Part shown: piece after piece, positions 2,449 through 23,857 of the stretch
Numbering within the stretch: position 1 is the stretch's first letter
Layout: every line of letters starts with the position of its first letter
Notes under the pieces: model-generated
Told to the model about the DNA's origin: nothing
The model's input: only the letters and a program-made list of their open reading frames with translations
Database searches by the model: none
Position numbers and translations under genes: made by a program
NCBI GenBank assembly: GCA_020632395.1
Contig: JACKFQ010000002.1
Coordinates: 83,662-147,661 of the forward strand
Direction: 5' to 3'
DNA length: 64,000 nucleotides
From: Candidatus Nomurabacteria bacterium
GTDB lineage: Bacteria; Patescibacteriota; Dojkabacteria; SC72; JAHDCA01

Positions 2449-2510
2449 ATATTTTGTGAAAATCCTTTATAAATTAAATCTTATTCTTCTAATGGTTGTA
2501 GGGTAAATTT

Positions 2511-2543: not shown

Positions 2544-2550
2544 GACCAAC

Positions 2551-2645: not shown

Positions 2646-2774
2646 CTTGAGTTCAAAAAATATTTTTCGTTCTGATTCATCAGAGAGGCTTTCGGTTATT
2701 TCTTATAAATTTGATTTTTTCGTTTTTCTTTTTCCAAGAGGGGTTAGGGATGAATTGGAAAAAATAAAAACTCC

Positions 2775-3440: not shown

Positions 3441-3604
3441 AATAGTAGGAGTAAAGAATTAAAATTTATAAATCAATCGTTTTCGGAACGAAGTGGAGAA
3501 AACACATTATTATCCCCCTCTTTTATTTTAGAAAAAATCAAATTTATTCCCTTTTTAGAAAGCCTATTTTCATTATTCATCTTAGAAAAATATTTTTTGA
3601 ATTT

Positions 3605-3638
3605 CACATAACGTATCCGAATATGAGAAGTTTTTTGC
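3605..3638. repeat. Cassette-junction block 1, copy E (cacATAACGTATCCGaATATgaGAAGTTTTTTGC)
   Basis: Junction core. A possible partner arm CGGATAatcagtGTTATAC lies at 3785-3803, just before the stop codon of the upstream gene. Confidence 0.6.
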
Positions 3639-3813
3639 CGGATTTCCCAGTATTTATGTACAGTTTAGCACATTCGTTCGACATTTGAATATGCTTTAAT
3701 TGATCGCCATTCGTAGGCAAAAAATTTGGATGGAATGAAAAAGACAAGTCCTTAAATTATTCAAAAGTGTCTTTTTCATGGAACCGGATAATCAGTGTTA
3801 TACGAGAGTTGAA

Positions 3814-4341
3814 TTAAGCGGCTCCTAGCAGTTTCAACATTTTCTCAGACCAATCAGTATTGCCCTTTGTTATTTCCTCCTTGAAAAATTTTATCATCAG
3901 CTGTTTTGGCTCATCCGATATTGCACAGTGCTTAATTTCTGGCCAAAATTCACGATACCATAATCCGATATTATCATGTTTTAAGTCGCAAGCACCGCCA
4001 TTTGGATCAGGTTCAATAAACAAAATCCTGTCTACGTGATTTGTAACAGAAGCTCCCAAGCATTGAATACAAGGTTCAAGCGTACTGTATAGAGAGACAA
4101 TTTTTGAATTATCCTTACGAACTTCCGCCAGCTCTTTGCCGTACTTAATTATTAGAGAATTTTCGGCATGATTCACAAAGGATTTTTGTTTATTGATTTC
4201 GTTGCCAGCGACGCCAAGCGTTTTATTATTGATAGCCAAAACAGCCCCCACAGGATAGTTCCCAAGCTTGAAAGTTTCTCTAGCAATACTGATGGCCGAC
4301 TCCAAGCATTGTTTATCGAATTGTGTTATTTCTTGCACCAT
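3814..4341 (-). CDS. CMP/dCMP-type (cytidine/deoxycytidylate family) zinc deaminase
   Basis: HAE (VNHAENSL) and PCxxC (LEPCIQCLG) zinc-binding motifs. Size is 175 aa. Confidence 0.75.
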   Translation of the reverse strand: MVQEITQFDKQCLESAISIARETFKLGNYPVGAVLAINNKTLGVAGNEINKQKSFVNHAENSLIIKYGKELAEVRKDNSKIVSLYSTLEPCIQCLGASVTNHVDRILFIEPDPNGGACDLKHDNIGLWYREFWPEIKHCAISDEPKQLMIKFFKEEITKGNTDWSEKMLKLLGAA

Positions 4342-4360
4342 ACAGAGCTTAATTCAATTT

Positions 4361-4391
4361 CATATAACGTTAGGGATATACGAAGTTTTGC
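4361..4391. repeat. Cassette-junction block 1, copy F (catATAACGTTAGGGATATACGAAGTTTTGC), the best-preserved copy
   Basis: ATATAAC-GTTA-GGGATATACG is the reverse complement of CGTATATCCC-TT-GTTATAC at 4442-4460, with a 2-nt versus 4-nt bulge. Confidence 0.75.
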
Positions 4392-4400
4392 GGAGTGAAA

Positions 4401-4494
4401 CGGAGCAAAATTTGGGTGAGGGGCGAGCCGAGCACCGAACCGTATATCCCTTGTTATACGCCCCGACGACCAAAGGGAGGAGAGCGCAGCGTGG
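4401..4494. repeat. Cassette-junction blocks 2-3, copy F
   Basis: Near-identical to 2551-2645. Contains the right arm of the attC-like inverted repeat. Confidence 0.75.
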
Positions 4495-4516
4495 TTCGTG
4501 GCGATAGCCGAGAAAG

Positions 4517-4553
4517 TCAGAAGTCGGCTTTTTTCTTTTTTATGAGCGCACAC
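4517..4553. repeat. Left arm of an imperfect inverted repeat flanking the methyltransferase gene
   Basis: TCAGAAGTCGGCTTTT ... TGAGCGCACAC are the reverse complements of AAAAGCCGACTTCTGA and GTGTGCGCTCA at 5425-5464. This arm abuts the stop codon. Confidence 0.7.
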
Positions 4554-5381
4554 CTATTTTTTCTTAACAATTATCATCATATGTCCACTTAAATCAACAA
4601 TTATTGGATCGGTGCAAATTTTGTTATGAATGGCTAACCAATTTTTCCATGCTTTTGGATATTTCTTTGCAAATTTATTTGTCGCTTCAGGATTTACATT
4701 TAAGCCTTCAAGACCCACTTTCTCAAGAATTTGCACATCTTTTTTGGTAAAAATGGACTCAAGCTCTGATGAGGTAAAATAATGACAATAGCCATCTCCT
4801 CTCCATTTATAATCTTCACCATCAGATACCAGTCCCTCGAAATGCTTTTTGTAAACTACTTCTTGTGGCCAACCAAGAGGAGTGGCTAGGAGTACCCCAT
4901 ACTTGCTCATTACTGAAACAAAAATTAAAGCACCCTTTTTTGCGACTCTAATTAATTCGTCAATTGCTTTTAGTCTTTCGGATTCTGGGCTGACATGAGA
5001 GAGTGGTCCGCCCAAGCACAATACTACATCAAAAGAATTATTTTCAAATTCAGATAAGTCTGTAATAGACCCCTCTACAATATCTTTAATTTTTGTTTGT
5101 ACCTTTGCTTTTTTAATTTGTTCCCTAGCAAGTTCTAGGTGTTCTGTGACCAAATCCAGAAGAACAACATCATATCCCATTTTTGCCAATTCAATTGAGT
5201 ATCTTCCGGGACCACCACCTGCGTCAAGAATTACTCCAGATTTTGGAAGATATTTTTTTAGGAATTTTATTGATGTGTCAAATTCTATTTTATGAAAGGG
5301 GTCTTGTGCTAATCTATTCCATTCATAAAGAGCATCTTTTTTGTAATTCTTTTTGGTTAGTTTTGTAGTCTTGTTTGCCAT
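4554..5381 (-). CDS. Class I SAM-dependent methyltransferase
   Basis: Motif I VILDAGGGPGRYSIELAK with the acidic residue at VVLLDL. Size is 275 aa. Confidence 0.8.
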   Translation of the reverse strand: MANKTTKLTKKNYKKDALYEWNRLAQDPFHKIEFDTSIKFLKKYLPKSGVILDAGGGPGRYSIELAKMGYDVVLLDLVTEHLELAREQIKKAKVQTKIKDIVEGSITDLSEFENNSFDVVLCLGGPLSHVSPESERLKAIDELIRVAKKGALIFVSVMSKYGVLLATPLGWPQEVVYKKHFEGLVSDGEDYKWRGDGYCHYFTSSELESIFTKKDVQILEKVGLEGLNVNPEATNKFAKKYPKAWKNWLAIHNKICTDPIIVDLSGHMMIIVKKK

Positions 5382-5424
5382 AATAATATTGTAAAGTATA
5401 AATGATTTATAATTGTTGTGTTAA

Positions 5425-5464
5425 GTGTGCGCTCATTCCTTCTTAATTAAAAGCCGACTTCTGA
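5425..5464. repeat. Right arm of the inverted repeat flanking the methyltransferase gene
   Basis: GTGTGCGCTCA ... AAAAGCCGACTTCTGA. A 16-nt and an 11-nt perfect reverse-complement match to 4517-4553, with different spacers. Confidence 0.7.
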
Positions 5465-5466
5465 TT

Positions 5467-5500
5467 GCGTATAACTCGTTACTATACGAAGTGTTTTCGC
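5467..5500. repeat. Cassette-junction block 1, copy G (attI-equivalent position next to the recombinase)
   Basis: gcGTATAACtcGTTActATACGAAGTgTTTTcGC lies between the first array gene and the divergent tyrosine recombinase gene. Confidence 0.6.
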
Positions 5501-5590
5501 AATTTGTACAGAAATGCATATACTATGCGAACAGTTTCTGACAAAATAACTCTAAACTAATTATCAATATCATCTCATAAAAAACAACAA

Positions 5591-6403
5591 ATGAAAAAAG
5601 AAATTACAGCAACTGTACGAGAATTAAAAATTCGCAATTACAGTTCTAAAACAATAAAAAGCTACACTAGTGGAATTCAAAAATACTTTCGGTTCAAGAA
5701 AAATAATTTCCAACAGCTAGATATCCACAATATACAAAACTTTTTACTCTCCTGTTCAGATAAAGGACTGTCTGCTAAGACAAGAGATCTATATTTGAAT
5801 TCAATTAAATTCTATTACCACAACGTCATTAAAACTTCAAAAAAGGTAGACATCAAATCTGCAAAACAAAATAAAAGTCTCCCTGTTATATTGAATCGCA
5901 AGGAAATCACAAAGTTGAGTGAAGTCATAAATAACCCCAAACACAAATTAATCATCTTGCTAGCATATGGAGCAGGATTAAGAGTTAGCGAAGTCGTCAA
6001 CTTAAAGGTCAAGGACGTAGATATTGATAATCTCACACTCCATATTAAGAAAGCCAAGGGGAAAAAGGATAGAATTACTATTATCCCAGAAAAAATTAAG
6101 GATGATCTGAAATTGATAATTAATTCAAGAGATCAAAACGAATATGTTTTTACAAGTGAACGAGGAGGAAATCTTACAACTCGTACTGCACAAAAGATTT
6201 TTACTAATGCTCTGAAAAAAGCAGGAATTAAGAAGGAGACGACATTTCATTCACTACGCCATAGCTTTGCAACTCACTTACTAGAAAACGGAGTTGATAT
6301 CAGATATGTTCAAGAATTACTTGGTCATCAAAATATTAGAACCACACAAAGATATACTCAAGTTACAAATCCGAAACTAAAAAACATTAAAAGTCCCCTC
6401 TGA
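5591..6403 (+). CDS. Tyrosine site-specific recombinase (XerC/XerD/phage-integrase family, 270 aa)
   Basis: Box I LRVSEV, box II HSLRHSFAT, catalytic Tyr in LGHQNIRTTQRYTQV. About 91 residues separate the box I Arg from the box II His, matching the Xer spacing, so no IntI-type insertion. Confidence 0.9.
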   Translation: MKKEITATVRELKIRNYSSKTIKSYTSGIQKYFRFKKNNFQQLDIHNIQNFLLSCSDKGLSAKTRDLYLNSIKFYYHNVIKTSKKVDIKSAKQNKSLPVILNRKEITKLSEVINNPKHKLIILLAYGAGLRVSEVVNLKVKDVDIDNLTLHIKKAKGKKDRITIIPEKIKDDLKLIINSRDQNEYVFTSERGGNLTTRTAQKIFTNALKKAGIKKETTFHSLRHSFATHLLENGVDIRYVQELLGHQNIRTTQRYTQVTNPKLKNIKSPL

Positions 6404-6561
6404 AAAGAAACATTTTCTAAGACTCGAACCCAATTATTAGAGTTATATAGGCATTCTTGCTTATGGAGTGATATTTACCTTACTTTGCGTCATTTCTACG
6501 AACTGCAAGATTAGTCCGCTGTATAAGGCTTTTAAAATGCTGAAGAAAAAGCTGACCTAAC

Positions 6562-6711
6562 TGGTCGGGGAGACAGGACCATCTCGGCAAACATGCCTCG
6601 ATGTATGATGCAGAATAATTCTACTGCATCATAGGTCCCTGCAGTAGGTTCAAGTCCAAATACACCATCCATACAGAGTAAACGACCACCTAACGGTGGT
6701 CATTTACTCTG
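6562..6711. repeat. 150 bp module at the 3' end of tRNA-Pro(CGG); duplicated at 22862-23012
   Basis: Nearly identical to the copy at 22862-23012. Begins with GTCGGGGAGACAGGAC, a 16-nt direct repeat of the tRNA 3' end. Contains the hairpins TGATGCAG/CTGCATCA and GACCACC-TAAC-GGTGGTC. Confidence 0.8.
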
Positions 6712-6785
6712 TCGGGGAGACAGGACTTGAACCTGCGACCTCTGCAACCCGAATGCAGCGTTCTAGCCATCTGAACTACTCCCCG
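6712..6785 (-). tRNA. tRNA-Pro, anticodon CGG
   Basis: Manual cloverleaf: acceptor CGGGGAG/CTCCCCG, D-stem GTTC/GAAC, anticodon arm CTGCA-TTCGGGT-TGCAG, T-arm GCAGG-TTCAAGT-CCTGT, discriminator A. Length 74 nt with no encoded CCA. Confidence 0.85.
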
Positions 6786-6875
6786 AGTACAATATTTCTC
6801 TTAGGTATATCTGGCAAATGAGCCTTATAATAACAACTTTACGAACGTAGTACTATATACGAATTCCACTATCCA

Positions 6876-7297: not shown

Positions 7298-8368
7298 CTA
7301 ACTATAAGTTAGCTGGGTAGACAACTGCTTCACCATCTCCACTACAACTGCAGGAGCCACTATACTATATGATTCTACACCATTGTCATCGATAAAAGTC
7401 CACTTCGTATCCTTCCGTACTACCTTACCATCTACTACCTCATAAGATGCACGAGGTGTTAATTCGTAATCATCAAGTATATCAGCTGCGATCTCCACCG
7501 GAACAGAATTTCTCACAAAGATCTTTGGAACGCCATGCAGGTCAAAGATCTTTCGGATCAACTCATCGTCCATCTCTATCCTTTCCCGGATAGTTTCTAT
7601 GCCAAGAGAATCCCCCTCTTTCTCAACCATTCGCTCAGAGCTACATTCAGGGTTATCACAAATCAGGTAAAACTCATCCTTATCAGGGTCATAGCCAGCT
7701 TCCTTTGTGGGGAAAGCCCACAGATTTCTTGATGTATGACATTTGGGGCAGATCCTCCTGTATTTGATGCGTGTATCAATTACTGATTCGGGAACATCCA
7801 GTAGCATGAAAAGATCAGGGTCATCGCGATAATTGATCAGCTCTCTAAAATACAGTGAGTATGTCACCTGATCCATATTTCTAGGAAACCCATCAATGAA
7901 CAGATTTCTCCTACCGGCCTTTTCGATCTCGCGTTTAACGAGAGCGAGAATGAACTCGGTAGGTAGAAGATGTGCGGTAGAGCGATTCATAAAGGCCTCT
8001 ATTGCATCATTTATGGATATAAAACCTCTATAATTAGCTTTCAGATACTCTTCCAGAGCTTGCCTCTCTACTGGATCGTTCTTGATCTCATCAGCAGCCC
8101 TTACGATATCACCTACAGAGAGGTGTTTGATCATATCAGAGCCAAAGATCTCAGCTAAGAGCTTAGTGAAAGTTCCTTTACCTGCTTGTTTCTTTCCAAG
8201 AATGTAGACTATGAACGTATTATCTCTCATATAATCTTTCAGATCGGCAATCTCTTTACCGATCTTATCTTGAAAATATACTTGTCTTTCTGCCGGATCT
8301 GACAGATCATAACTATCACGACCTGATCTAGTCTTTGTGTTTGGCATAGGAAAATCTAACCCCTTCAT
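7298..8368 (-). CDS. Atypical adenylate-kinase-family protein with N- and C-terminal extensions and a zinc lid
   Basis: P-loop GKKQAGKGT, HLSVGDIVRAA, FIDGFPRN, and a zinc lid CPKCH ... CDNPEC. At 356 aa it is longer than the operon adk at 229 aa. Confidence 0.55.
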   Translation of the reverse strand: MKGLDFPMPNTKTRSGRDSYDLSDPAERQVYFQDKIGKEIADLKDYMRDNTFIVYILGKKQAGKGTFTKLLAEIFGSDMIKHLSVGDIVRAADEIKNDPVERQALEEYLKANYRGFISINDAIEAFMNRSTAHLLPTEFILALVKREIEKAGRRNLFIDGFPRNMDQVTYSLYFRELINYRDDPDLFMLLDVPESVIDTRIKYRRICPKCHTSRNLWAFPTKEAGYDPDKDEFYLICDNPECSSERMVEKEGDSLGIETIRERIEMDDELIRKIFDLHGVPKIFVRNSVPVEIAADILDDYELTPRASYEVVDGKVVRKDTKWTFIDDNGVESYSIVAPAVVVEMVKQLSTQLTYS

Positions 8369-12533: not shown

Positions 12534-15500
12534 ATGGTGTCCAAAAGTAAACAGAAAAAACGATCAAAAAACAAACAGTTCGAACTAAGGATGATACTTT
12601 TGGGGATTGTATCACTCACTCTGTTTCTAGTTTCCTTACTCATATATCTCTATAAAAGTGAGTCGATAATTGATAAATACAACATCATTGCAAGTGATTT
12701 CTCTGACAGTTCCTTCTCAATATCCTTCAGCACATTACAACCTAAGTATTTTCAAGCAGTCCTTTTAACCGAAGGAGAGGGGATCTCAAAACTGATATCT
12801 TCAAAAGCTACATCAGAGACTGAAGATATCAGGATCATCGAAAGAGTTTCTGATACTTTCAAACCCGGATATTATACCCATTATTACACATTCAAAAAAA
12901 TAGATCCTAATGAGAGCTATCGGGTCGCATTAAAGGACTCTACGGGGAGATTATGGAAGACTGATAAAGTTATCTTCCCAGAGGATTGGGAGGAGAGACA
13001 TAAGGTTCAGAAAGGTGACTCTGATCCATTGCCACTTTCAGGTTCTGTATCCTATGAAGGTGAATTTGTTCAAGGTGCATTGGTTTATGCAACATATAAT
13101 GGCATTACGATCTCAACGATCACAGCTGAAGAAGGTAAGTTCGTTTTAGAAGCTGCAAAATTTGGTTTACACGGATCTGACTTTGAAGACACACTGTCAA
13201 TACCTATAAACGTAGACCTATCATATCTAGGTGGCTACGACACCTCACTCACATACACCACAGAAGAACTTAGTAGTAGGACAGAAAAAGATCTAGGACT
13301 CATCTGGAGTACAAGAAGTATGGACTGGGGATCAGATATCATGCCGAAGAAAAAAAGTGAAAATCTTCTTGTCTCAGAGGTCTATGCCTGCTCTGCCGGA
13401 CAAACAAGGATCTGTCGCTCTGATACGAGTCGTGGGAGAGCTTGTTTACCAGGTAGTACCTGTGCATGGGAGGTCGATGAAGAAGGTTACCCTATCATCT
13501 GTTCATGCACATCACAAAGCTCAGGTTCCTCTGGTACTGCTGGAAATTCGACATCAACATCAGCTCCTGACATGTCTAACGCCGGATGGGAGAATGGTGT
13601 ACCGGAGGTTGGAGGGAGTACACCTCTTGATAGTCAGCTATGTGAATATAAATGTTCGGTAGCATGCTCGTCAGAGCACTCTGATGGAAATTGGTATGGT
13701 CAATGTGGTAACCCCGACAAAAGCGATGCAGGTATAGACACTTGCACTTGTATAAAGCTCGAGGGAGAGATGAGTAGCTATACAACACCAGCATATGACC
13801 CTAATCAGTTCGGTTCTGGGCAAGGAGGTTTCAATTGCCCAGCTGGTCAAGATATCTATGTGTCAAAGCCCGGGGTGATTTTTTGTGTACCTGCAGATGC
13901 ACCTAAGGTAGGTTACAAGGTCGACCCATCTTTAGTACAGATATTCACAGCGATCAAAGAGGCGATCGAGTCTGTCGGGGTCAAGGCTGGACTGATCACG
14001 GGAGGTTTTGGAGGAGGAGGAGGATCATACACAACTGACAAAAGTGGAAGACCCGTCATAAGGTTAGATTGGAATGAGCCGAATGTTGCATTAACAGCTG
14101 CTCATGAAGCGATGCACCAGGCTGGTGATCAGGCAGCCTCTTGTTATAGGAGTTTACCCGTGATACATAAAGAATTTTGTGCAGATTACTGTTCCTTGAG
14201 CACACCCTTAGAGATTGGTTATGCATTTAAGTATAAAGGATCCTATAGACTTCCAATGGAGATCGCTTCAGAAGAGTGGTATGGAGGTGAGACAGATCTG
14301 GATGCGATAAGAAATAGTCAACGATATAAGAATGACTGCCTAGATCCTGACGGTATGTGCCGAGGAGGAATATGCGACATTGTGAATAAGGTGAATATAA
14401 CAGATGTTGTAGGGAGACGTTACGCACAAACCCATAATGAATACAGTGACGGTGTGAGGGGTTTGGAATATGTGGGGTCTGGAATAAAGAGGAATTGGAA
14501 TCTACCAGATGATGATACTGTAGGAAGCGATGATCCTGCGATCTCTGAAACAGATACTTTCGATCCTGATCGTGATGAACCTGCATCAAATGAAGCTGTT
14601 TCTAATACAGACACCCCGGTTTGTACCTATGAAGAGGTGGGAGAGATCATTTATGAATTTAAGAATGCATACTATTACGAGATACTCAGTAGTATGCCAC
14701 CAGGTACAGAAGTCGATACAGAGGACCTGTTAGACTGGTTGTTAGAAAAGATCACAGATTACTATGGTTATGATCAGAACAAAGCGCAGTGCATAATTGA
14801 TCATCTTGACCAGTACCCAAATCTACTGCATTTTGATTCGTTACTTGTTTGGGATGACACAAAAGATGCTTATATAGTGACCACAAACAGTATGGGTTTT
14901 GCTGATTTTGCAGGATTGATAGAGAATGGATTTGATTTGCTTGATCCTTCAGATCTAGACGAGCAAACAAGTTATTCCTTGCCCGCTATACCGAGAGTAG
15001 ATACCTCTGGACTTTATGAGATCTATTCAGCTTTTCCAATCGATTACGATTCCGAGACAGGATCATTTTTGATCAGTTACGATCCGGATGTAGAAACTCA
15101 ATCGGAAAGTCTGTTGCAGAAAGCTTATGCAAGCGAACCGACTGTTCATCAGATCGACCCTTCCAATGCAAAGATGTTTCTATTTACGGATACAAATGAG
15201 AATCAAAAATACGATCCAGAGGGAGAGCAAATCGAGAAATTTGCAGGTATACCTATCATAATAAAACGGGCGCCCGAACAAACCCAACATAGCTATCAAT
15301 TGAACAAGGGTTTGAACATGATAGCGTTTCCTTTCGAAGCTGAAAGTTTTACAGCAAAATCACTATTAGATAAAATAAACACACAAGGTGGAGATGCAAC
15401 AGAGATATCCACGATACGAGATGGTACCTGGCAGGTTTATAAGAAATCCAAATTTGTAGATTACACATATAAGGACTTCCCTATTGAGATCGGAAAAGGA

Positions 15501-15794
15501 TATTTCGTATTTACTGAACGGGATTCTACTCTACATCTGTGGGGCAATGAAGTTGACTTTACATATGAGATCTTCTCTGGATATGGGAGTGTGGGTTTCT
15601 CGGATACTCTGATCGAACAGTATAAGACCGCATATGGATTACTCCTCGCTGATAGTCAGATATATGAGATCACAAAATATAAGGATGGAAAATTCTATTC
15701 CGTTATCAGATCCGATGGTGACATATTTGGGTATGATTATGACCTCTCAAAATATGAAGGGTATTTCATTAGAAAATTACGATCTTCAAACTGA
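12534..15794 (+). CDS. Giant secreted or membrane-anchored Cys-rich surface protein (1086 aa)
   Basis: N-terminal TM helix LRMILLGIVSLTLFLVSLLIYLY, Cys-rich blocks, a Gly run and an acidic C-terminal half. No recognisable catalytic motif. Confidence 0.6.
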   Translation: MVSKSKQKKRSKNKQFELRMILLGIVSLTLFLVSLLIYLYKSESIIDKYNIIASDFSDSSFSISFSTLQPKYFQAVLLTEGEGISKLISSKATSETEDIRIIERVSDTFKPGYYTHYYTFKKIDPNESYRVALKDSTGRLWKTDKVIFPEDWEERHKVQKGDSDPLPLSGSVSYEGEFVQGALVYATYNGITISTITAEEGKFVLEAAKFGLHGSDFEDTLSIPINVDLSYLGGYDTSLTYTTEELSSRTEKDLGLIWSTRSMDWGSDIMPKKKSENLLVSEVYACSAGQTRICRSDTSRGRACLPGSTCAWEVDEEGYPIICSCTSQSSGSSGTAGNSTSTSAPDMSNAGWENGVPEVGGSTPLDSQLCEYKCSVACSSEHSDGNWYGQCGNPDKSDAGIDTCTCIKLEGEMSSYTTPAYDPNQFGSGQGGFNCPAGQDIYVSKPGVIFCVPADAPKVGYKVDPSLVQIFTAIKEAIESVGVKAGLITGGFGGGGGSYTTDKSGRPVIRLDWNEPNVALTAAHEAMHQAGDQAASCYRSLPVIHKEFCADYCSLSTPLEIGYAFKYKGSYRLPMEIASEEWYGGETDLDAIRNSQRYKNDCLDPDGMCRGGICDIVNKVNITDVVGRRYAQTHNEYSDGVRGLEYVGSGIKRNWNLPDDDTVGSDDPAISETDTFDPDRDEPASNEAVSNTDTPVCTYEEVGEIIYEFKNAYYYEILSSMPPGTEVDTEDLLDWLLEKITDYYGYDQNKAQCIIDHLDQYPNLLHFDSLLVWDDTKDAYIVTTNSMGFADFAGLIENGFDLLDPSDLDEQTSYSLPAIPRVDTSGLYEIYSAFPIDYDSETGSFLISYDPDVETQSESLLQKAYASEPTVHQIDPSNAKMFLFTDTNENQKYDPEGEQIEKFAGIPIIIKRAPEQTQHSYQLNKGLNMIAFPFEAESFTAKSLLDKINTQGGDATEISTIRDGTWQVYKKSKFVDYTYKDFPIEIGKGYFVFTERDSTLHLWGNEVDFTYEIFSGYGSVGFSDTLIEQYKTAYGLLLADSQIYEITKYKDGKFYSVIRSDGDIFGYDYDLSKYEGYFIRKLRSSN

Positions 15795-15822
15795 TTGGAG
15801 AAACTGATCAGTAAAGCAAATT

Positions 15823-17499
15823 CTACAGATCAACCAGAGAGTTGTATGTCACATTAGTAAGATTTGGTGTGCATCCACTATTCAGAAATAAACCTGTTGT
15901 GGTACCGAAGAAATCAGTATTACTGATCGTTGGATTGCATGTAACATTTGTTATATAGCCACCGTACGTCGTCCCTACCCCTGTTGCTGTAAAATCAGAA
16001 CCCGATATTGAGGGGGAAGATGTTTCGACATATAAAGCATAAGAGGTCGGAGACGAGTCGATATTCTCAATATTTACAGATGTATTTGTGACTGATACTG
16101 GGGTCTTGTTTATTCTCACACCATATACCGTTCCATCTGATGATTTATTTATATTTATAGTTGAATCTGTAATTGATGAGGAGTTTATGATCCCATAAAA
16201 TCCATACGTCGTAGTTCCACTCCCAGTTACTGACAAATTAGCAACTACATTATCTATCAACATAGTATTTCCAGATGATACCGGATAGAACAATCCTACT
16301 GATTTGGTCGCAGAAGTGTAATTTATCACACTATCATAGATCCGGGTCTGTGCTGCCGAATTCGTATATATGATCTTATCAATAGTATTATTCGAAGTAG
16401 CATTATTTGTAATTGTGATATCTGAATCATACATACTGAAATTCGAAGCCCAGAAGGTATTCACAATACCAACATCGTCTCTTGTGCCAGAGCCACTTTT
16501 TACTTCAAGAGCAATATTCATATTATAAAATCTACCTCCTCCTGCATTATGAGTTATCGCATATAATCCATCTCCTGCAGGAGGTTGCTTAGCGTTTACG
16601 GTTACATTATTAGCTATCATAAAGCTACCTGTCCTAGTCAAAAGTGGGTATATAGGTCCAGTATTTGTATCGATCTCGATATTCACATTCTTTACATAAC
16701 AAGGATTTGCAGCACGACGAGAATATGCATCGATTGGTGCCCACCAGGATATGTTTCCCGACCGTTTTATCGTTAGATCACGTATACTTGAGGAGTTACT
16801 CATATATGCATTATTTAACAATACGGTCTTTCCGACACCAGATCCTCTAACTTCGACATATTCCTTTATATCGATACTTTCATTATATGTGCCAGGCATA
16901 ACAAAGATAGTGTAACTCTTGGTTGCTGAGCTATCAGTGATCGAATTCATTGCAGAAGTGATTGTAGTATAGGTTTGTCCTGATCCGACAACAATAATAT
17001 CTTCATCATTCACAGTGATAGGAGTTTGATCAGTTGGGATGAAGATCCCATCGATCATTGCAGTTCGTTGGTTAGAACCTTTTACCTTCACCTCATAACC
17101 AGTCCCTAAGCTATCATCCTCAACATCTGGGGATATTGGAATATCGACTACATAATCAGGGATCAAGTCGTCTAAACTGATCATGCCTCTGGATTCACAT
17201 TCGGATCTTGGCACACCACTCTTACAAACTTCTTTGTATATTGAGCTAACCCCCTCAGGATAACCGCTATTATCGATCAGATACTGGTCTATCGCACTAT
17301 ACAGAGCATTTAATTCATTCTTAGTCTCTGAGACCTTTGCGGACTCGTACATCTTTGTTGGATTTATTGCAATAGCAACAACAGCACCCAATAATGCTAT
17401 CAAACCGACAACGACCAAGATCTCGATAAAAGTAAATGCTGGATATGTTTTCGAATGCTTTAAAAAATATATATTATTCATATAATCTTGTTGTCTCAC
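15823..17499 (-). CDS. Type IV pilin-like protein with a large Ser/Thr/Asn-rich C-terminal domain (558 aa)
   Basis: Prepilin signature PA|FTFIEILVVVGLIALLGAVVAIAI with Glu at +5. The long C-terminal region is rich in NxT/S sites. Confidence 0.7.
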   Translation of the reverse strand: MRQQDYMNNIYFLKHSKTYPAFTFIEILVVVGLIALLGAVVAIAINPTKMYESAKVSETKNELNALYSAIDQYLIDNSGYPEGVSSIYKEVCKSGVPRSECESRGMISLDDLIPDYVVDIPISPDVEDDSLGTGYEVKVKGSNQRTAMIDGIFIPTDQTPITVNDEDIIVVGSGQTYTTITSAMNSITDSSATKSYTIFVMPGTYNESIDIKEYVEVRGSGVGKTVLLNNAYMSNSSSIRDLTIKRSGNISWWAPIDAYSRRAANPCYVKNVNIEIDTNTGPIYPLLTRTGSFMIANNVTVNAKQPPAGDGLYAITHNAGGGRFYNMNIALEVKSGSGTRDDVGIVNTFWASNFSMYDSDITITNNATSNNTIDKIIYTNSAAQTRIYDSVINYTSATKSVGLFYPVSSGNTMLIDNVVANLSVTGSGTTTYGFYGIINSSSITDSTININKSSDGTVYGVRINKTPVSVTNTSVNIENIDSSPTSYALYVETSSPSISGSDFTATGVGTTYGGYITNVTCNPTISNTDFFGTTTGLFLNSGCTPNLTNVTYNSLVDL

Positions 17500-18523: not shown

Positions 18524-19771
18524 TTAGTCGTCAATCTCTACAAAAAGAACCTGTCCAGCTGAGTATATTGACATACCAACACCAAAGTCGGTCTTAACTA
18601 GATCCAAACCTAATTTGGTATCTCTACTATTGGTGTTATATACTAACTCAGGGGAAACCCAATTGATCCCATCAGTGGAACGAGCTCTGACCAACTTACC
18701 AACTGAATTCAGGTAAGTTTGCCAGTAGGCTTCAATAACCCCTGACTCACGTACATAGAGTTCTACTGCACCTTGATAGTTATCAGGTCCACCTTCGATC
18801 ACTGTAAGATTTTGTGTCCCATAAGGATCGATCCTAAGTAGTTGTATTTCAGAAGAAGAATTTGCAGCATCGACAGTTGCCCAACCATATAGTCTATCTC
18901 CATTTGGAAGGAATATCTGATCAACATCAACAGAATAATCACCATGAAAACCAGAATAGATCTTGTTTATCACTCGACCACTCTTCGAATAGACATCTGT
19001 TATCCTCTCAGTATTTCCAGAATCAAGCGTTGTCCATGTCGTAACAATTCCGGTTTTCTTCGAGTACTCAACATCTACAGAGATCTCATCTATGAAAGGT
19101 GATGTTTCCTTTGACACTCTCTTCAAGTCTTTCCATTCACCTGTCAGAGGATCGAAACGAGTTTCATAGATCCTAAAATTCCCTGTATTACCTTCATACA
19201 AGGAAAAAGCTGCAAAAAATGTGCAAGAATCAGTAGAAGAAACTGCAGTATTTCTGAAACGAGGAGGTCCTGCGAGAAGCATATCCTCTAATTGAATTTC
19301 CTCACCACCTGTAACCTTAGTAGCTGGCAGGTTTAATCTCGTTATGCTCCATGTCTTTCCGAGATCCTTTGATTCCGACAGATAAGCAAAAAAACTGTTG
19401 TGTACAGTTGAATACATACTTGATGCAACTACAAGGGTATCCTTACATATATGTAAAGATGGGTACTGACTATAGTTCTCATCTGTTGAAAGAAGAACAT
19501 TCTGACCCCACTCTGTACTTCCAGCTTTCCTAGTGCTGTAATACAACTTACTTGGATTCTCAAAATCTCTGGAATCCTTCCAGACCGCATGTAGATTTCC
19601 ATACTGATCCTGTACAACTTCAGCATGAGAGTCCACCATGTAGTCTGTAGCTGGTGGGGTATCATTGATCACGGAAACTCTGACTCCTTCGGACGAATCT
19701 CCAGCATACAGAGGTGATACCGTAGAAAGCACCACTGCTACAAGGGAGAGAAATGAAATAAATTTTCGCAT
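18524..19771 (-). CDS. Secreted BNR/Asp-box repeat protein (sialidase-like beta-propeller)
   Basis: Signal peptide MRKFISFLSLVAVVLSTVSPLYA. Asp-box motifs SKDLGKTWS and STDGINWVS. Confidence 0.55.
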   Translation of the reverse strand: MRKFISFLSLVAVVLSTVSPLYAGDSSEGVRVSVINDTPPATDYMVDSHAEVVQDQYGNLHAVWKDSRDFENPSKLYYSTRKAGSTEWGQNVLLSTDENYSQYPSLHICKDTLVVASSMYSTVHNSFFAYLSESKDLGKTWSITRLNLPATKVTGGEEIQLEDMLLAGPPRFRNTAVSSTDSCTFFAAFSLYEGNTGNFRIYETRFDPLTGEWKDLKRVSKETSPFIDEISVDVEYSKKTGIVTTWTTLDSGNTERITDVYSKSGRVINKIYSGFHGDYSVDVDQIFLPNGDRLYGWATVDAANSSSEIQLLRIDPYGTQNLTVIEGGPDNYQGAVELYVRESGVIEAYWQTYLNSVGKLVRARSTDGINWVSPELVYNTNSRDTKLGLDLVKTDFGVGMSIYSAGQVLFVEIDD

Positions 19772-19901: not shown

Positions 19902-22103
19902 ATGAACACTGAGCAATTCGTTCCAGGTGAATATGGTGTATCTATTTCCGACAGGGTTCTCGGTCGGTTAATTGAGGTATTTGGATCTGCGGCTTTAACT
20001 GGGTCTCAAGATTCTCAATGGCATATTTACCCTAATTCACACGAAGCATTAGATGGTATATCACATACGATAACATATGAGCAGATACAGGCATTCTCAC
20101 CTGCCATGCTTCTCGTGCTGTTACTGATAATAGAAGAATCTGATGAAGAGTCTTATCTTGCTGCTATGGAAAATCAAGCATATAGGCCAACATATACCAG
20201 AACAGCTGAGACTGATGAAGAATTGAATCCTGATTTGGATGAAGTACCGCAGAACCATGCCAGAGGTCTCATTCAAGATCTTTTAGCTTTGAAACTACGT
20301 GACACTGACATGGTCCCTGGATTTGCAAATGATGTTGCGAGATATCTCTCAACAGACCCTGCTTTATCAGAAGCATCCATTAGAAGATCATTCTGGGAAA
20401 TACAGGCTGCTTTCTATCAGATTCTGGACGATGATCGGGAACTATTTGAGAAAAACCTTAGATGTTTCTTGGATCGATCATATGTGATCGATCCCAATTG
20501 GGGTCTAGTCGTTGATACCTTCCTCAACTCAAAACTCGAATTTGAAAAGATCCCACCTGAAGCATTCGAAGCTAAAGAAATAACTATTTTTTCAAGAAAC
20601 CAGGATATTTTTGATTATGTTATCGATTACCTACTCCATCATATAAGGACCCAAAGTCTAACCAGAAAACAAGTAGACAATATAGTATCCTTACTACTAC
20701 ACAATTACATGGCTGGTAATGATGTGATGATTGCTTTTGATATGCTCATACGTCGGAGAGGAGCAAATTTTGATATCCTTGTTTTCGCTAAAAAGAATCC
20801 AACAGTCTCAAAAAAGATACTAGAACACATATTTCATTTACTTTTAACAGAACCAGACACAAATTATCCTGTTGATGTTCAAAAGACCTTGGTAGAGGGA
20901 TGGATACTTCTAGTTAGATTACCTGTTTTAAAAATATGTCAAATACCTTTTGCTAAAGAAATCTTAGAAAAATATGCGTCTAGTCTAAAGATACCCCCTA
21001 GTGTAGCAGTCGGATTGCTTACTAAACGGCAAGATACTCAACAGGTGTTAGTCTCTTCAGACTCTGAGGAAGAATGCCAAGAATCTAGGAGAATACCAGC
21101 AACACATTATCTGCCTACTGAAATTACTACCAGATTAATCTCACATTTTCAGTGGGAAGAGCTTTCAACTGTAGGAATAGATCTTGATAAACTCTCGCTC
21201 GTGCAAGTTTTCCAATTAATTTTCTGGTTTTGGACAAATGGATATGATTTCGACATATATTATGGTATTCCCGCCCAAAACCCAGATCGATCTATCCCAA
21301 TTTTTGTAAAAAACCTGTCGAAACATCTGGAGCATCTATTGAAAAGATCAAATGCTGGGGAGCTTGATTCATTTTGTCAGGTTCTTGCAGAAAAGTTGAA
21401 CCATGGTGAACCTACAGCAGGTATCAATCCATACATATACGCAGACACCGTCTCAAGATTTCTTGTAGAGTACATAGAACCAGAGCTGAGACTTACGTTG
21501 TTGAAATCATTACAATGTGTAGATTACCCAACCGCCATAGTTTTAGCCCACAACCTTAACATGGAACAAGAGCTATACCAAAACCCTCCTGACCAGAAAA
21601 TCCCTGTAATAAACGCGATCCGTTCTGATGCAGAGTTCTCACTCAACGTTCTAAGGACGATTATCGACAATAACCATGAGTATCCAAACACTCCATCTCA
21701 TGTCTACTTGTTACTGCTACGAAAATCACTTTTTCCCCGAGGAAACAAACTTTTTACAATGACGGATAAGACACTCTTACGGAAAATATTGGGAAAAGTA
21801 GAACGTTCTGATCGAAACCAAATTCTCGATGAGCTAATAGAAAGAATATTTTGGACATATTCCCAACAAACCCAAGACCTGTTAAGGCTTTCGGCTTTCC
21901 TCGAGCTAGCTACGCCATCAGAGGTATATGCTTTTTATAGAAAACTTTATTTCATAGGTCAGGAGGATCCTAGAATGAGAGAACATGTTCTTAAACATAC
22001 GAAATTATTGATGGGTACGTTACCTATAGCAAATAAGATTGCTATGGCGTCTAAGTCGCTCCCGCGACCTTACGGTCGGGGTTTCGGCTCTTCATTCAAA
22101 TGA
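19902..22103 (+). CDS. Large hypothetical protein (733 aa), probably cytoplasmic and helical
   Basis: Long ORF with coding-like composition and no motif I recognise. Confidence 0.45.
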   Translation: MNTEQFVPGEYGVSISDRVLGRLIEVFGSAALTGSQDSQWHIYPNSHEALDGISHTITYEQIQAFSPAMLLVLLLIIEESDEESYLAAMENQAYRPTYTRTAETDEELNPDLDEVPQNHARGLIQDLLALKLRDTDMVPGFANDVARYLSTDPALSEASIRRSFWEIQAAFYQILDDDRELFEKNLRCFLDRSYVIDPNWGLVVDTFLNSKLEFEKIPPEAFEAKEITIFSRNQDIFDYVIDYLLHHIRTQSLTRKQVDNIVSLLLHNYMAGNDVMIAFDMLIRRRGANFDILVFAKKNPTVSKKILEHIFHLLLTEPDTNYPVDVQKTLVEGWILLVRLPVLKICQIPFAKEILEKYASSLKIPPSVAVGLLTKRQDTQQVLVSSDSEEECQESRRIPATHYLPTEITTRLISHFQWEELSTVGIDLDKLSLVQVFQLIFWFWTNGYDFDIYYGIPAQNPDRSIPIFVKNLSKHLEHLLKRSNAGELDSFCQVLAEKLNHGEPTAGINPYIYADTVSRFLVEYIEPELRLTLLKSLQCVDYPTAIVLAHNLNMEQELYQNPPDQKIPVINAIRSDAEFSLNVLRTIIDNNHEYPNTPSHVYLLLLRKSLFPRGNKLFTMTDKTLLRKILGKVERSDRNQILDELIERIFWTYSQQTQDLLRLSAFLELATPSEVYAFYRKLYFIGQEDPRMREHVLKHTKLLMGTLPIANKIAMASKSLPRPYGRGFGSSFK

Positions 22104-22861: not shown

Positions 22862-23012
22862 CTGGTCGGGGAGACAGGACCATCTCGGCAAATATGCCTC
22901 GATGTATGATGCAGAATAATTCTACTGCATCATAGGTCCCTGCAGCAGGTTCAAGTCCAAATACACCATCCATACAAAGTAAACGACCACCTAACGGTGG
23001 TCATTTACTCTG
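22862..23012. repeat. 150 bp module at the 3' end of tRNA-Pro(GGG); second copy
   Basis: Near-identical to 6562-6711, including the 16-nt direct repeat of the tRNA 3' end and both hairpins. Confidence 0.8.
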
Positions 23013-23086
23013 TCGGGGAGACAGGACTTGAACCTGCGACCTCTTGCACCCCATGCAAGCGCTCTAGCCATCTGAACTACTCCCCG
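23013..23086 (-). tRNA. tRNA-Pro, anticodon GGG
   Basis: Identical to the 6712-6785 tRNA except in the anticodon arm: CTTGC-ATGGGGT-GCAAG here versus CTGCA-TTCGGGT-TGCAG there, and one D-stem base. Confidence 0.85.
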
Positions 23087-23185
23087 ATAAGGATATTGTA
23101 CATTATGAGAACGAAAATAGTAACAGGAAAAGGGCTGTGTGCCCTTTTCAAGAAATATGTTAATAGTAATGAGAGCCAATAATTA

Positions 23186-23857
23186 TCACAACGTAACTTC
23201 AAGAATTATCCACAAGCCATCCTCTCCTCGATCATCTGTTTTCAATTCGAAACTCTTTTCTGATGTAAACGCAAATTTATAACTACTTCCGCTATCGGTA
23301 GGCATCCATGTTAGCTCAGGTAATTGATTACCCAGATCGGTCACTGTTTCTTCTTTTGCTACATAGTCTTTGACAAGATCTCCATACTCAGCCATAAGAG
23401 TTCCGTCTTCCAGCTGATAAACTTTGATCATAGGGTAAGGCTTATCTTCAGAAGCTCTTACCTTCCATTCAAACATGAATTTTCCTCCAGCAACTTCGTA
23501 CGAATAACCCACTACTGATGCACCATCAGCTGAACTTGCTGTACCTATAGTCAATTCTCCTGCATCTGTCACAATCTGTTCCTCCTCAACAGGGTCTGTT
23601 GTAACGGTATCTTCATCAGGCATATCAACTACAGTATTATCTGCATCACTCCCCTCATCATCAGGCTCATCTAATACTGGGTCATCATTTTCATCTACCT
23701 TATCTCCTGTATCATCGACCTTATCATCTTCCTCTCCAACGATAGTTACGTTCTCGAAATTTTCTTCTTCAACTTTATCGTCATCTTTTCTGAACAGTCC
23801 TATCAGTAAAGCTCCTGAGAGCAGAATTACTGCAAGTACGGCGAGTTTTTTAAACAT
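23186..23857 (-). CDS. Secreted or membrane-anchored acidic protein
   Basis: N-terminal signal/anchor KKLAVLAVILLSGALLIGL, then a D/E-rich low-complexity region. Confidence 0.5.
   Translation of the reverse strand: MFKKLAVLAVILLSGALLIGLFRKDDDKVEEENFENVTIVGEEDDKVDDTGDKVDENDDPVLDEPDDEGSDADNTVVDMPDEDTVTTDPVEEEQIVTDAGELTIGTASSADGASVVGYSYEVAGGKFMFEWKVRASEDKPYPMIKVYQLEDGTLMAEYGDLVKDYVAKEETVTDLGNQLPELTWMPTDSGSSYKFAFTSEKSFELKTDDRGEDGLWIILEVTL

Follow-up and report, generated by a model that had tools for sequence, protein, structure and literature searches.

Two long open reading frames, here termed ORF A and ORF B, lie in convergent orientation in DNA from a Candidatus Nomurabacteria bacterium, an ultra-small member of the Patescibacteria/CPR. 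This arrangement raised a question: do the two ORFs encode a functional pair, or two surface proteins with separate roles? We favor the latter, with a probability of roughly 0.6: the best overall explanation is that ORF B is a modular pilin and ORF A a separate surface protein, probably a zinc peptidase, and that the genes are independent. Both ORFs were found as described in the original prediction, exactly at the positions in Table 1. Because each has a full-length homologue (39–40% identity) from an unrelated metagenome, we regard both as real genes. The true start of ORF B is probably the ATG at 17481, where public gene calls also place it (P0001); the product would then be 552 aa long.

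Table 1. Positions of the features discussed, numbered from the first nucleotide of the window (the whole 64-kb stretch of DNA that was analyzed).
Feature	Position	Strand	Basis or annotation
ORF A: signal-anchored acidic surface protein, 1086 aa	12534..15794	+	NCBI H6763_02515, "hypothetical protein"
ORF A: Lys/Arg-rich cytoplasmic tail (aa 1–19, net +7) and single transmembrane signal anchor (aa 20–40)	12534..12653	+	hydropathy, charges
ORF A: two beta-sandwich stalk domains	12666..13268	+	sub-threshold PF13620, relatives' matches, AF2 strands
ORF A: Cys-rich region, aa 285–625	13386..14408	+	20 of the 22 Cys of ORF A
ORF A: putative zinc site, H524-E525-A-M-H528 ... E547-F-C-A-D551, i.e. HExxH-(18)-ExxxD	14103..14186	+	aligned motif in P0007, P0009
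ORF A: C-terminal two-repeat domain, ~210 aa	15141..15782	+	profile matches, alignment A5
ORF B: pilin-like protein, 558 aa from GTG at 17499	15823..17499	-	stop codon 15823-15825
ORF B: predicted class III (prepilin) signal leader MNNIYFLKHSKTYPA, 15 aa, net +2, Ala at -1	17437..17481	-	aligns to Geobacter PilA leader
ORF B: pilin module, mature residues F16–~169	16975..17436	-	GspG model, PDB pilins, AF2 helices
ORF B: right-handed parallel beta-helix module, residues ~170–552	15826..16974	-	conserved stripes
Repeat copy 1: tRNA-Pro(CGG) at 6711-6785 and 3' flank	6561..6796	-	direct repeat
Repeat copy 2: tRNA-Pro(GGG) at 23012-23086 and 3' flank	22862..23097	-	93% identical

The N-terminus of ORF B reads ...KTYPA↓FTFIEILVVVGLIALLGAVVAIAI, with cleavage by a prepilin peptidase predicted between positions 17437 and 17436. 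The leader is followed by FTFIE, in which Glu occupies position +5, and then by a hydrophobic helix of ~22 residues. This prepilin N-terminus is indeed present as it had been quoted in the original prediction, and its motif is the sole one at an ORF start in a six-frame translation of the window. The leader can be aligned to that of Geobacter PilA (7tgg, MLQKLRNRKG↓FTLIELL). Beyond the FTFIE segment, the pilin module consists of a hydrophobic alpha1-N, an amphipathic alpha1-C, and a small head with Cys86 and Cys95 (552-aa numbering). It matched the GspG model TIGR01710 (E 4.6e-7, residues 22–83), and the ORF B profile aligned to solved PDB pilins starting at their mature residue 1 (E 1.2e-6 to 1e-5). 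Matches to T2SSG and N_methyl were sub-threshold, the Pfam N_methyl score being 12.8 bits vs. a threshold of 21.2. In the AF2 model, helices span residues 18–39 and 41–70, and the head is at low pLDDT. The module shares 30% identity with a LamG-type modular pilin from the CPR. A homologue of ORF B (P0002; 39% identity over 94% of the length) has the canonical N-terminus MLKKG↓FTLLELL, with Gly at -1, and matches PF07963.

Points that count against a pilin include the N_methyl score below threshold, Ala instead of the usual Gly at -1, and the low-confidence head. Could the N-terminus instead be a plain signal anchor or Sec signal, so that ORF B would be a beta-helix protein that is tethered to the membrane or secreted and is never built into a pilus? 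The first two points would fit such a protein, as would the lack of type IV pilus (T4P) genes nearby; moreover, PilX1 and PilX2 of TM7x were reported to be without predicted PilD signals (PMC11623550). We nevertheless consider this quite unlikely, as the motif is present in full (basic leader, small residue, F1, E5, and hydrophobic helix), is kept in the 39%-identical homologue with Gly at -1, and is in register with mature pilins and one prepilin leader. A charged Glu within a plain signal anchor would also be unusual. The Ala at -1 also occurs in another CPR pilin (L009, RARSA↓FTLIELL), and the definition of class III signals accepts it (PMC8179133).

The class III signal, the canonical homologue, and the alignment to solved pilins led us to assign ORF B, from its sequence, to the modular type IV pilins, a type that has been catalogued and is common in the CPR. 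Such proteins include two from Streptococcus sanguinis, PilB and PilC, whose extra modules are a vWA and a lectin module, respectively (Raynaud et al. 2021; PMC8179133). Their architectures combine IPR012902 with an extra domain, with many CPR examples, and the combination of a pilin with Beta_helix (IPR012902-IPR039448) has been catalogued three times (PMC8179133); we confirmed that IPR039448 is Beta_helix. Like these pilins, ORF B joins a class III signal and a small pilin module to a bulky C-terminal module. It differs from them in that its beta-helix is divergent and resembles a CE8 cap, that the Pfam Beta_helix and N_methyl models miss their thresholds, and that its family, of which only two full-length members were found in 5.8 billion clusters, is unstudied. 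Measuring ORF B against a normal major pilin, at about four times the size, as had been done in the original prediction, is misleading: its architecture points to a modular pilin, probably a minor one located at the tip (PMC8179133).

No T4P machinery (pilD, pilB, or pilC) was found among the translations of the 64-kb window, nor in the Pfam tables for ~10 kb past each window end, which were covered by contigs of other assemblies. No second pilin gene lies close to ORF B either, which is thus an orphan. T4P machinery genes occur in most phyla of the Patescibacteria (PMC11623550).

What does the C-terminal module do? As had been predicted, it is oversized and rich in Asn, Ser, and Thr (37%), and a beta-helix is predicted there with good confidence. 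Conserved stripes are found at TNTGPIYPLLT (272–282), GDGxYAITHNAGGG (303–316), RDDxGIVNTFWASN (334–347), and TNVTCNPT (511–518), and conserved blocks repeat about every 25–31 residues in three or more stretches of the helix. Right-handed beta-helix proteins with which it was compared include PfbA, Vag8, and pertactin; AlgE4; PL6 lyases; CE8 pectin methylesterases; and phage tailspike depolymerases. ORF B has only 6–14% sequence identity to these adhesins and enzymes, none of which, unlike ORF B, carries a fused pilin module.

The module might be an enzyme displayed on the pilus, namely a polysaccharide esterase, lyase, or depolymerase, which, like a phage tailspike, would locally alter a surface polymer of the partner cell. 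Beyond the pilin part, the sole sequence similarity of ORF B is to a pectinesterase (CE8; Pfam 7e-5, PDB 3uw0 1.5e-7). Its best-conserved blocks, the second and third stripes given above, hold Asp, His, Trp, and Asn, and the GDG Asp is in register with its counterpart in the QDT motif of CE8. However, the Pfam match is below the cut-off and, at 78 of 298 positions, covers no more than the N-terminal cap. Nor has the catalytic signature of CE8 been kept: the Gln residues are not conserved, and the DFIFG and GRPW motifs are not evident. Likewise, two non-pilin relatives (P0004 and P0005) lack the conserved GDG Asp. We thus view an enzyme as possible but rather doubtful; the tiny family gives almost no power to distinguish adhesin from enzyme by comparison.

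A further candidate function is DNA uptake, with ORF B as a competence pilin bearing a DNA-binding beta-solenoid. ComZ of Thermus thermophilus is a pilin with a beta-solenoid that has been implicated in DNA binding (PMC8179133), and DNA uptake is often linked to CPR pili (PMC9530719). The ComZ solenoid, however, is inserted in the pilin beta-sheet, whereas the ORF B helix is appended C-terminally and is acidic (pI 4.9, net -5, with 3 Lys/Arg in the last 150 residues). Fold searches with ORF B returned no match to ComZ, and we regard this function as very improbable.

We turn to ORF A, which had been described as membrane-anchored, acidic, and Cys-rich. The anchor and the acidity (pI 4.5) hold: there is one N-terminal hydrophobic segment (hydropathy peak 2.69 at residue 21), no Ala-x-Ala site lies downstream of it, and the layout of tail and anchor recurs in two homologues, P0007, which is 40% identical over its full length, and P0009, which shares the architecture at 23% identity. 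The richness in Cys, on the other hand, is regional. The 22 Cys amount to 2.0% of residues vs. 0.68% in the window's long ORFs, but nearly all fall between residues 285 and 625; 13 Cys columns are conserved in ORF A and these two homologues. The first stalk domain (aa ~45–150, motif FKPGYYTHY) is like Fn3 or the purple-acid-phosphatase N-terminal domain, and the second (aa ~160–245) like CarboxypepD_reg. The ORF A match to PF13620 was sub-threshold (E 0.013–0.075). At the equivalent N-terminal position, three carriers of the ORF A C-terminal domain, whose profile match is confined to that domain (P0015, P0017, and P0018), have Pur_ac_phosph_N/fn3 at 1e-8 to 7e-10. The strand pattern of the AF2 model agrees with beta-sandwiches at low confidence; overall, that model was uninformative (mean pLDDT 30).

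Within the Cys-rich region lies an HExxH...ExxxD motif; neither it nor the widespread C-terminal domain described below had been remarked upon in the original prediction. The aligned equivalents are HEAYH-13-EFCAD in P0007 and HEDQH-14-EAYSD in P0009, the latter kept despite 23% identity. The ExxxD and its spacing are as in thermolysin-type gluzincins; in thermolysin the spacing is ~20 residues, to which the 13–18 residues here are close. The conserved HExxH-(13–18)-ExxxD suggests a gluzincin-like protease, an assignment that is based on a short motif. ORF A showed no detectable homology to peptidases in Pfam, NCBIfam, or PDB, and, unlike in the gluzincins, its putative site is inside a Cys-rich extracellular region.

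It is quite possible, although we do not favor it, that ORF A is purely structural or adhesive and that its motif does not form a zinc site with catalytic function. The lack of homology to peptidase families or solved proteases and the uninformative model accord with this, and the His and Glu residues, in Cys-rich surroundings, could bind a structural metal. If typical frequencies of His and Glu are assumed, HExxH would, as a rough estimate, arise by chance in ~3% of proteins of ORF A's length, yet here it is aligned with an ExxxD at 13–18 residues in three homologues at 23–40% identity. In addition, ~26% of the carriers of the C-terminal domain have an HExxH in a hydrophobic, helix-like context. 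A zinc peptidase remains our preferred reading of ORF A.

In the C-terminal domain, a strand resembling SdrD_B (FxDxNxNxxxDxxE) precedes two ~85-aa units of the form G[WL]N[LM]I..P ... GYF[IV]. The ORF A profile detected 527 representative proteins at E<=1e-3, nearly all of which matched this domain only; in 149 of 150, the domain ended near the protein C-terminus (median distance, 7 residues). No match to it was found in Pfam, NCBIfam, or PDB. The GW modules of Listeria InlB and Ami, tandem-repeat modules at the C-terminus that mediate surface association, offer an analogy only. The ORF A repeats likewise form the very C-terminal end of secreted proteins that otherwise differ widely, but they have no sequence relationship to GW modules and no SH3_8/GW Pfam match. 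Unlike GW modules, the single unit is found in archaea and diderm bacteria as well. The envelopes of these organisms are very different, which argues against a specific cell-wall anchor; a general role in binding or anchoring is probable for the domain.

Are ORF A and ORF B a pair, as had been claimed? They could form a functional host-attachment module, perhaps on an island bracketed by tRNA-Pro loci: both encode surface proteins, only 28 bp separate the convergent genes, and the gene for P0002, the only pilin homologue, is likewise followed by genes for two large, Cys-rich, TM-anchored proteins (locus L001). These neighbors, however, have no detectable similarity to ORF A (best E 0.6), and no pilin lies within 10 kb of the gene for P0009 (locus L016). 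The contig encoding P0007 stops 42 bp past the gene and gives no neighbor information. In the three examinable loci, the adjacency is not conserved; being convergent, moreover, the two genes are not co-transcribed.

The tRNA-Pro loci had been described as duplicated and the interval between them as significant. A 236-nt direct repeat (93% identity) does hold both tRNAs, each copy consisting of a tRNA-Pro and ~150 nt of 3' flank, and it lies on both sides of a 16.3-kb interval. The tRNAs, however, are different isoacceptors (CGG vs. GGG), and the differences between the copies cluster in the anticodon arm. The significance given to the interval was not supported: its G+C equals that of the flanks, it holds housekeeping genes (adenylate-kinase-like, M20 peptidase, ABC transporter, and SDR), and an integrase and low-G+C DNA sit outside it. 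The order of an M20 peptidase gene followed by an ORF A homologue recurs at the distant relative P0009. The interval thus looks native. We consider a functional pair unlikely and conclude that these are probably two independent surface genes that are neighbors by chance.

How might the two proteins operate? ORF A would be a type II (N-in) membrane-anchored protein in which a beta-sandwich stalk leads to a disulfide-rich region; its core would probably be a gluzincin-type zinc peptidase, and its distal end would be the two-repeat domain that it has in common with hundreds of large secreted proteins. The class III signal of ORF B would insert the protein in the membrane, prepilin peptidase would cut after Ala15, and the T4P machinery would take up the product via its N-terminal hydrophobic helix. 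A beta-helix of ~380 residues is too bulky for every filament subunit; therefore, ORF B would most likely be a pilin of low abundance that sits at the tip of the pilus, where its beta-helix may contact a polymer on the surface of another cell, as an adhesin or a polysaccharide-modifying module.

Close parallels are PilX1 and PilX2, minor pilins of TM7x (Saccharibacteria), CPR proteins with large C-terminal accessory domains that have been proposed to be tip proteins (PMC11623550). These domains are of the beta-jelly-roll and beta-propeller types, whereas that of ORF B is a beta-helix; PilX1 and PilX2 lack the predicted PilD signal that ORF B has, and they are encoded in pilin/T4P loci, unlike the orphan ORF B. 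In Saccharibacteria, minor pilins with large accessory domains take part in host binding, and PilX2 is required for efficient host binding in TM7x (PMC11623550). By analogy with PilX2, ORF B may have a role in host attachment. It is probably a pilus-tip adhesin or a sugar-cutting enzyme, and its fusion of a pilin to a large beta-helix is a known but little-studied design.

Open reading frames for two large surface proteins, hereafter A (the larger) and B (the pilin-like one), lie exactly where the original prediction had placed them (Table). A is deposited at NCBI as H6763_02515, a "hypothetical protein" of Candidatus Nomurabacteria bacterium; the expectation that the organism belongs to the ultra-small CPR bacteria was thus borne out. 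The genes converge on a spacer of 28 bp that holds no terminator, and a scan for promoters and terminators around them gave counts no higher than expected from shuffled sequence. The locus recurs in several assemblies and read sets, and its gene order is the same in each. Unrelated metagenomes supplied one homologue of about 40% identity over the full length of each protein: P0007 for A and P0002 (locus L001) for B. From these homologues, we conclude that both genes are real and constrained. Residues of B are numbered below according to its 552-aa form.

Table. Features of the window and aligned motifs of A and its homologues
Feature	Position	Strand	Length, sequence or match
A	12534..15794	+	1086 aa
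B	15823..17499	-	558 aa from GTG; 552 aa from ATG at 17481 (public gene calls)
A, C-terminal domain	15141-15782 (residues ~870-1083)		~210 aa
A, aligned motif			H524-E-A-M-H528...E547-F-C-A-D551
P0007, aligned motif			HEAYH...EFCAD
P0009, aligned motif			HEDQH...EAYSD
Direct repeat, two copies	6561-6796; 22862-23097		236 nt
Direct repeat, two copies	2558-2645; 4407-4494		88 nt
Tyrosine recombinase	5591-6403		PF00589, 6e-45
Adenylate kinase paralogue	7298-8368	-	356 aa; PF00406
Secreted protein	18524-19771	-	415 aa; weak BNR/sialidase-like match, E 0.012
Protein with no matches	19902-22103	+	733 aa
Acidic signal-anchored protein	23186-23857	-	223 aa
CAP/SCP surface protein	41035-42531	-	498 aa; PF00188, 1.4e-21
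RNase P RNA, bacterial class A	48836-49312	-	477 nt; 142.6 bits

Does B begin as a type IV pilin should? Its N-terminus consists of the leader MNNIYFLKHSKTYPA followed by FTFIEILVVVGLIALLGAVVAIAI. The leader has 15 aa, a net charge of +2 and Ala at position -1, and it therefore qualifies as a class III signal, the definition of which accepts either Gly or Ala at that position (PMC8179133). The mature protein starts with FTFIE-ILVVVGLIALLGAVVAIAI; that is, Phe1 and Glu5 are in place and lead into a hydrophobic helix of ~22 residues with a hydropathy peak of 3.19. The prepilin N-terminus with Glu at +5 that had been read from the sequence is accordingly present, complete with leader and small residue at -1. 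P0002 has a textbook version (MLKKG/FTLLELL, where the slash marks the end of the leader), and Ala at -1 recurs in a CPR pilin encoded at the metagenomic locus L009 (RARSA/FTLIELL). When all six frames of the window were searched with a loose prepilin motif, B was the only instance at the start of an ORF.

None of the curated pilin models matched B above its cut-off: PF07963 (N_methyl) scored 12.8 bits against 21.2, PF08334 (T2SSG) 16.2 against 21, and TIGR01710 (GspG) 29.9 against 88.85, the last with an E-value of 4.6e-7 over a partial, N-terminal stretch (residues 22-83). P0002 carries a precomputed PF07963 match. A profile built from B and P0002 matched solved pilins (GspG 5wda, geopilin and PilE/PilA) in register from mature residue 1, with E-values from 1e-6 to 1e-3, and it also covered the leader of Geobacter PilA (KG/FTLIELL). 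The AF2 model of B, computed from a five-sequence alignment (mean pLDDT 67), has helices at 18-39 and 41-70. Pilins have a globular head with a beta-sheet and, often, a D-region closed by a disulfide; the putative head of B (residues 40-169), modeled at pLDDT below 50, contains C86 and C95, a pair with a counterpart in P0002.

The remainder of the protein, residues 170-552, was modeled with confidence as a stack of short strands (pLDDT 70-94). The region formerly described as beta-helix-like is therefore confirmed, by this model, as a right-handed parallel beta-helix with a pectate-lyase-like fold, in which three-stranded coils are piled on one another; its Asn/Ser/Thr-rich character was also verified (37%). 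In sequence, this module resembles only pectinesterases, and those only in their N-terminal cap: PF01095 matched at 7e-5 over profile positions 8-85 (78/298), scoring 22.2 bits against a threshold of 27, and the B profile matched PDB entry 3uw0 at 1.5e-7. Members of the pectinesterase family CE8 are recognized by the catalytic residues Gln ... Gln-Asp-Thr, Asp-Phe-Ile-Phe-Gly and Arg..Trp. When the profile is aligned to 3uw0, PIYPLL takes the place of QAVAL and GDG that of QDT, so that the Asp alone is retained. The motifs DFIFG and GRPW are absent from B, in which RDDVGIVN is a loose analogue at best. As the catalytic signature is not kept, B does not belong to CE8. Another candidate, a DNA-binding pilin like ComZ, is unlikely in view of the acidity of the helix (pI 4.9), whose last 150 residues include only three Lys/Arg.

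The longest blocks identical between B and P0002 are TNTGPIYPLLT (272-282), YAITHNAGGG (307-316), GIVNTFWASN (338-347) and TNVTCNPT (511-518). The first three lie about one coil apart, a spacing that, in this comparison of only two sequences, weakly suggests a conserved groove. The beta-helix may belong to either an adhesin or an enzyme.

This arrangement has precedents. Raynaud et al. [quoted passage not shown] B, with its small pilin module (16-~169) and a bulky beta-helix of no pilus-specific type (170-552), fits that definition, and we class it as a modular pilin of type IV whose added module is a beta-helix, a known kind that is typical of CPR bacteria. The same survey counted more than 1,200 modular pilins in 264 architectures, many of them from CPR phyla, and argued that such proteins are probably exposed at the pilus tip (PMC8179133). 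The combination IPR012902-IPR039448 is entered three times in its Dataset S1 (PMC8179133); we checked that IPR039448 is the Beta_helix domain. In the Saccharibacteria strain TM7x, the minor pilins PilX1 and PilX2 have large accessory domains and have been proposed to sit at the pilus tip; efficient host binding depends on PilX2 (PMC11623550). The family of B itself is very small: a search of 5.8 billion clusters yielded two members of full length, and 185,579 species-representative genomes contained no relatives. A metagenome scan with B returned one match, to the pilin part only, which was the pilin of L009, a modular pilin of LamG type.

Homologues of pilB, pilT, pilM and pilC occur in most Patescibacteria phyla (PMC11623550), and type IV pili have been reported for Patescibacteria bins from activated sludge, including one assigned to Nomurabacteria (PMC9530719). 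The translations of the 64-kb window included no T4P machinery or prepilin peptidase (PilD, PilB, PilC, PilM). No T4P genes were found in the ~10 kb past each end either, as read on contigs of other assemblies; those stretches encode ribosomal and EF genes on one side and DsbD-like and cohesin/dockerin-like surface proteins on the other. Within this span, B is an orphan pilin gene. On L010, a related contig that continues past the start of the window, the segment 5016-12367 encodes a DsbD/CcdA-type membrane protein (PF02683), and large proteins close to it match cohesin, dockerin or Big_6 faintly. Such a grouping would fit a role in handling the disulfides of Cys-rich surface proteins outside the cytoplasm.

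A had been described as Cys-rich, acidic and membrane-anchored. The latter two traits held: the protein has a pI of 4.5 and a single hydrophobic segment (residues 20-40) behind a tail of charge +7. Its Cys-richness proved regional. The 22 Cys amount to 2.0% of residues, as against 0.68% in other long ORFs of the window, and 20 of them are confined to residues 285-625. Searches of A against Pfam and NCBIfam, and of its sub-regions and P0007 against Pfam, yielded nothing significant; a word-indexed search with an A-P0007 profile returned the same two proteins only, and the AF2 model from this two-sequence alignment had a mean pLDDT of 30. A more distant homologue, P0009 (1056 aa), retains the entire architecture of A at 23% identity. 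At the position equivalent to A ~45-150, three other relatives (P0015, P0017 and P0018) match Fn3/Pur_ac_phosph_N, and residues 168-207 of A give a weak match to CarboxypepD_reg.

In an alignment of A, P0007 and P0009, 13 Cys are conserved and the HExxH motifs coincide; in all three, ExxxD follows after 13-18 residues (Table). An HExxH with a downstream Glu in ExxxD at about this spacing is the signature of thermolysin-type gluzincins, and A carries it. A profile of the HExxH region found no protease in the PDB, and searches of Pfam and NCBIfam no known peptidase family; the best match was DUF5700, a putative Zn peptidase, at an E-value of 0.061 and through one member. Because homology to known peptidase families was not found, the assignment of A as a gluzincin-like protease is a motif-based proposal, for which we consider the odds to be slightly short of even. 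From the N- to the C-terminus, A would comprise an N-in transmembrane anchor, two beta-sandwich stalk domains, a disulfide-rich region with the putative zinc site, an acidic linker with a helical region, and a distal two-repeat domain.

This last domain is widespread. HMMER, run exhaustively over 1.84 billion representatives, gave 527 matches at E<=1e-3, nearly all of them restricted to the last ~210 residues of A. Of the 150 best among the 527, 149 have the domain at the end of the protein, where a median of 7 residues remain before the C-terminus. The proteins bearing it have a median length of 1042 aa; of those longer than 500 aa, 92/120 have a hydrophobic N-terminus and 0/120 a pilin-like one. 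The domain is composed of an SdrD_B-like strand (FxDxNxNGxxDxxE) and two units of ~85 residues with the consensus GWNL[IV]SFP...TA..LL..I..QGG.AT.V.TY..G.W..Y...DF.I.PG.GYF[IV][KR]. Apart from weak SdrD_B hits on the first strand, searches with its profile in Pfam, in NCBIfam and among PDB sequences found nothing. Single units were encountered in genomes of Saccharibacteria, other Patescibacteria, Chloroflexota, Desulfonema, Lentisphaerae and Poribacteria, and among archaea in Methanocella, Methanomassiliicoccales, Thermoplasmata, Bathyarchaeia and Woesearchaeota; there, too, they are without Pfam annotation. Further examples of the domain or its unit were seen at L022:5578-6495, at the C-terminus encoded by L042, and at loci L017-L065. 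A is an independent signal-anchored surface protein, in which the gluzincin-like motif is conserved and the C-terminal domain is of a widespread, unannotated type.

About one-quarter of the other domain-bearing proteins have an HExxH in the context of a hydrophobic helix, many in the form HEC.H...KL.EG. This variant, h-h-HEC.H with KL.EG ~30-37 residues on, is carried by P0011, P0021, P0049, P0055, P0076, P0084, P0103, P0107, P0109, P0128 and P0152, among others. The pattern suggests a second unannotated, metalloprotease-like family on the same type of C-terminal domain.

Are A and B a pair, as the original prediction had it? At L001, the gene for P0002 precedes those of two large TM-anchored proteins rich in Cys (1179 and 842 aa), an arrangement analogous to that of A and B and, as a single case, worth noting. 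No similarity of A to either protein was found. The two (L001 2602-8660) are on the same strand as P0002 and have no Pfam matches; the 1179-aa protein ends in a Pro/Asp-rich, Cys-rich tail. No pilin is encoded within 10 kb of P0009, and the contig of P0007 ends at the gene. Of 49 genome loci with an A-type C-terminal unit, one has a pilin-like motif nearby. With the neighbors of P0002 unlike A and the P0009 locus lacking a pilin, the adjacency is not conserved, and a pairing is not supported.

The same applies to the idea that the tRNA-Pro loci on either side of the genes delimit a special interval (6.8-22.9 kb). The marks of a tRNA-flanked island would be an integrase within it, a direct repeat at either end, and a composition that is atypical or a presence that varies. 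The repeat exists: 236 nt, comprising the tRNA-Pro and ~150 nt of its 3' flank, recur 16,301 bp apart at 93% identity, with different anticodons (CGG vs. GGG). The integrase, a tyrosine recombinase, is not part of the interval: it lies 3' of tRNA-Pro(CGG). The G+C content inside (0.39-0.41) equals that of the flanks. Gene order, which includes adenylate-kinase-like, M20 peptidase, ABC transporter and SDR genes, is identical in all four assembly contigs that are long enough, and M20 followed by A is also the order in the P0009 genome. The interval therefore looks native rather than mobile.

Several observations concern the DNA around the tRNA genes. A perfect hairpin, AGAGTAAATGACCACC-GTTA-GGTGGTCGTTTACTCT, directly follows the tRNA in the repeat flank. 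The 3' end of the tRNA recurs ~130 nt downstream of it (~6577-6562) as GTCCTGTCTCCCCGAC; this duplicate looks like an att-type remnant. Low-G+C DNA (0.32-0.36, vs. ~0.40 elsewhere) occupies bases 1-6,000, outside the interval and likewise 3' of tRNA-Pro(CGG). The segment 1-6403, which ends in the recombinase beside tRNA-Pro(CGG) and includes an 88-nt direct repeat (89% identical), has probably arisen as an integrated element. From ~23100 onward, past the acetyltransferase and tRNA-Pro(GGG), the window genes are replaced in GCA_020429305.1 (L004 16875-19533) by a HATPase_c_3 protein and a DNA methylase, a case of strain-level variation at that tRNA locus.

Other genes were noted in passing (Table). 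Those for the 415-, 733- and 223-aa proteins are uncharacterized and lie around A and B. The CAP/SCP protein starts with a signal-anchor; after the CAP domain, a Pro/Ala-rich linker leads to an Ig-like region, and a TM segment is found at the C-terminus. The adenylate kinase paralogue is a long one; a canonical adk of ~225 aa is present separately, in the ribosomal-protein cluster. The RNase P RNA, longer than its 367-position model, appears to carry insertions.

Little is understood, to our knowledge, of how uncultivated CPR/Patescibacteria recognize and hold other cells; Saccharibacteria are the one genetically tractable lineage we know of, and large accessory-domain pilins are the lead candidates there. 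The original observation is confirmed and its interpretation supported in part; our results fit current ideas and overturn none. Taken together, B could be a carbohydrate-active enzyme at the pilus tip and A a representative of a new family of surface-anchored gluzincin-like proteases with an undescribed C-terminal module, a joint reading to which we assign a probability of roughly 0.15. If it is true, B would be a "tailspike on a retractable pilus" that cuts or de-esterifies surface polysaccharide of the partner cell before docking, and the ~210-aa two-repeat domain of A would be a very widespread surface-protein module of bacteria and archaea, new to Pfam, NCBIfam and the PDB. The pilus-borne, tailspike-like module of B and the C-terminal domain of A are the two items that may reward further work. 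With B, glycan recognition or degradation by a Parcubacteria-type organism gains a concrete candidate that can be put to the test; A adds a candidate surface zinc protease, and defining its C-terminal domain, present on hundreds of large proteins that are secreted, would improve the annotation of many "hypothetical" surface proteins.
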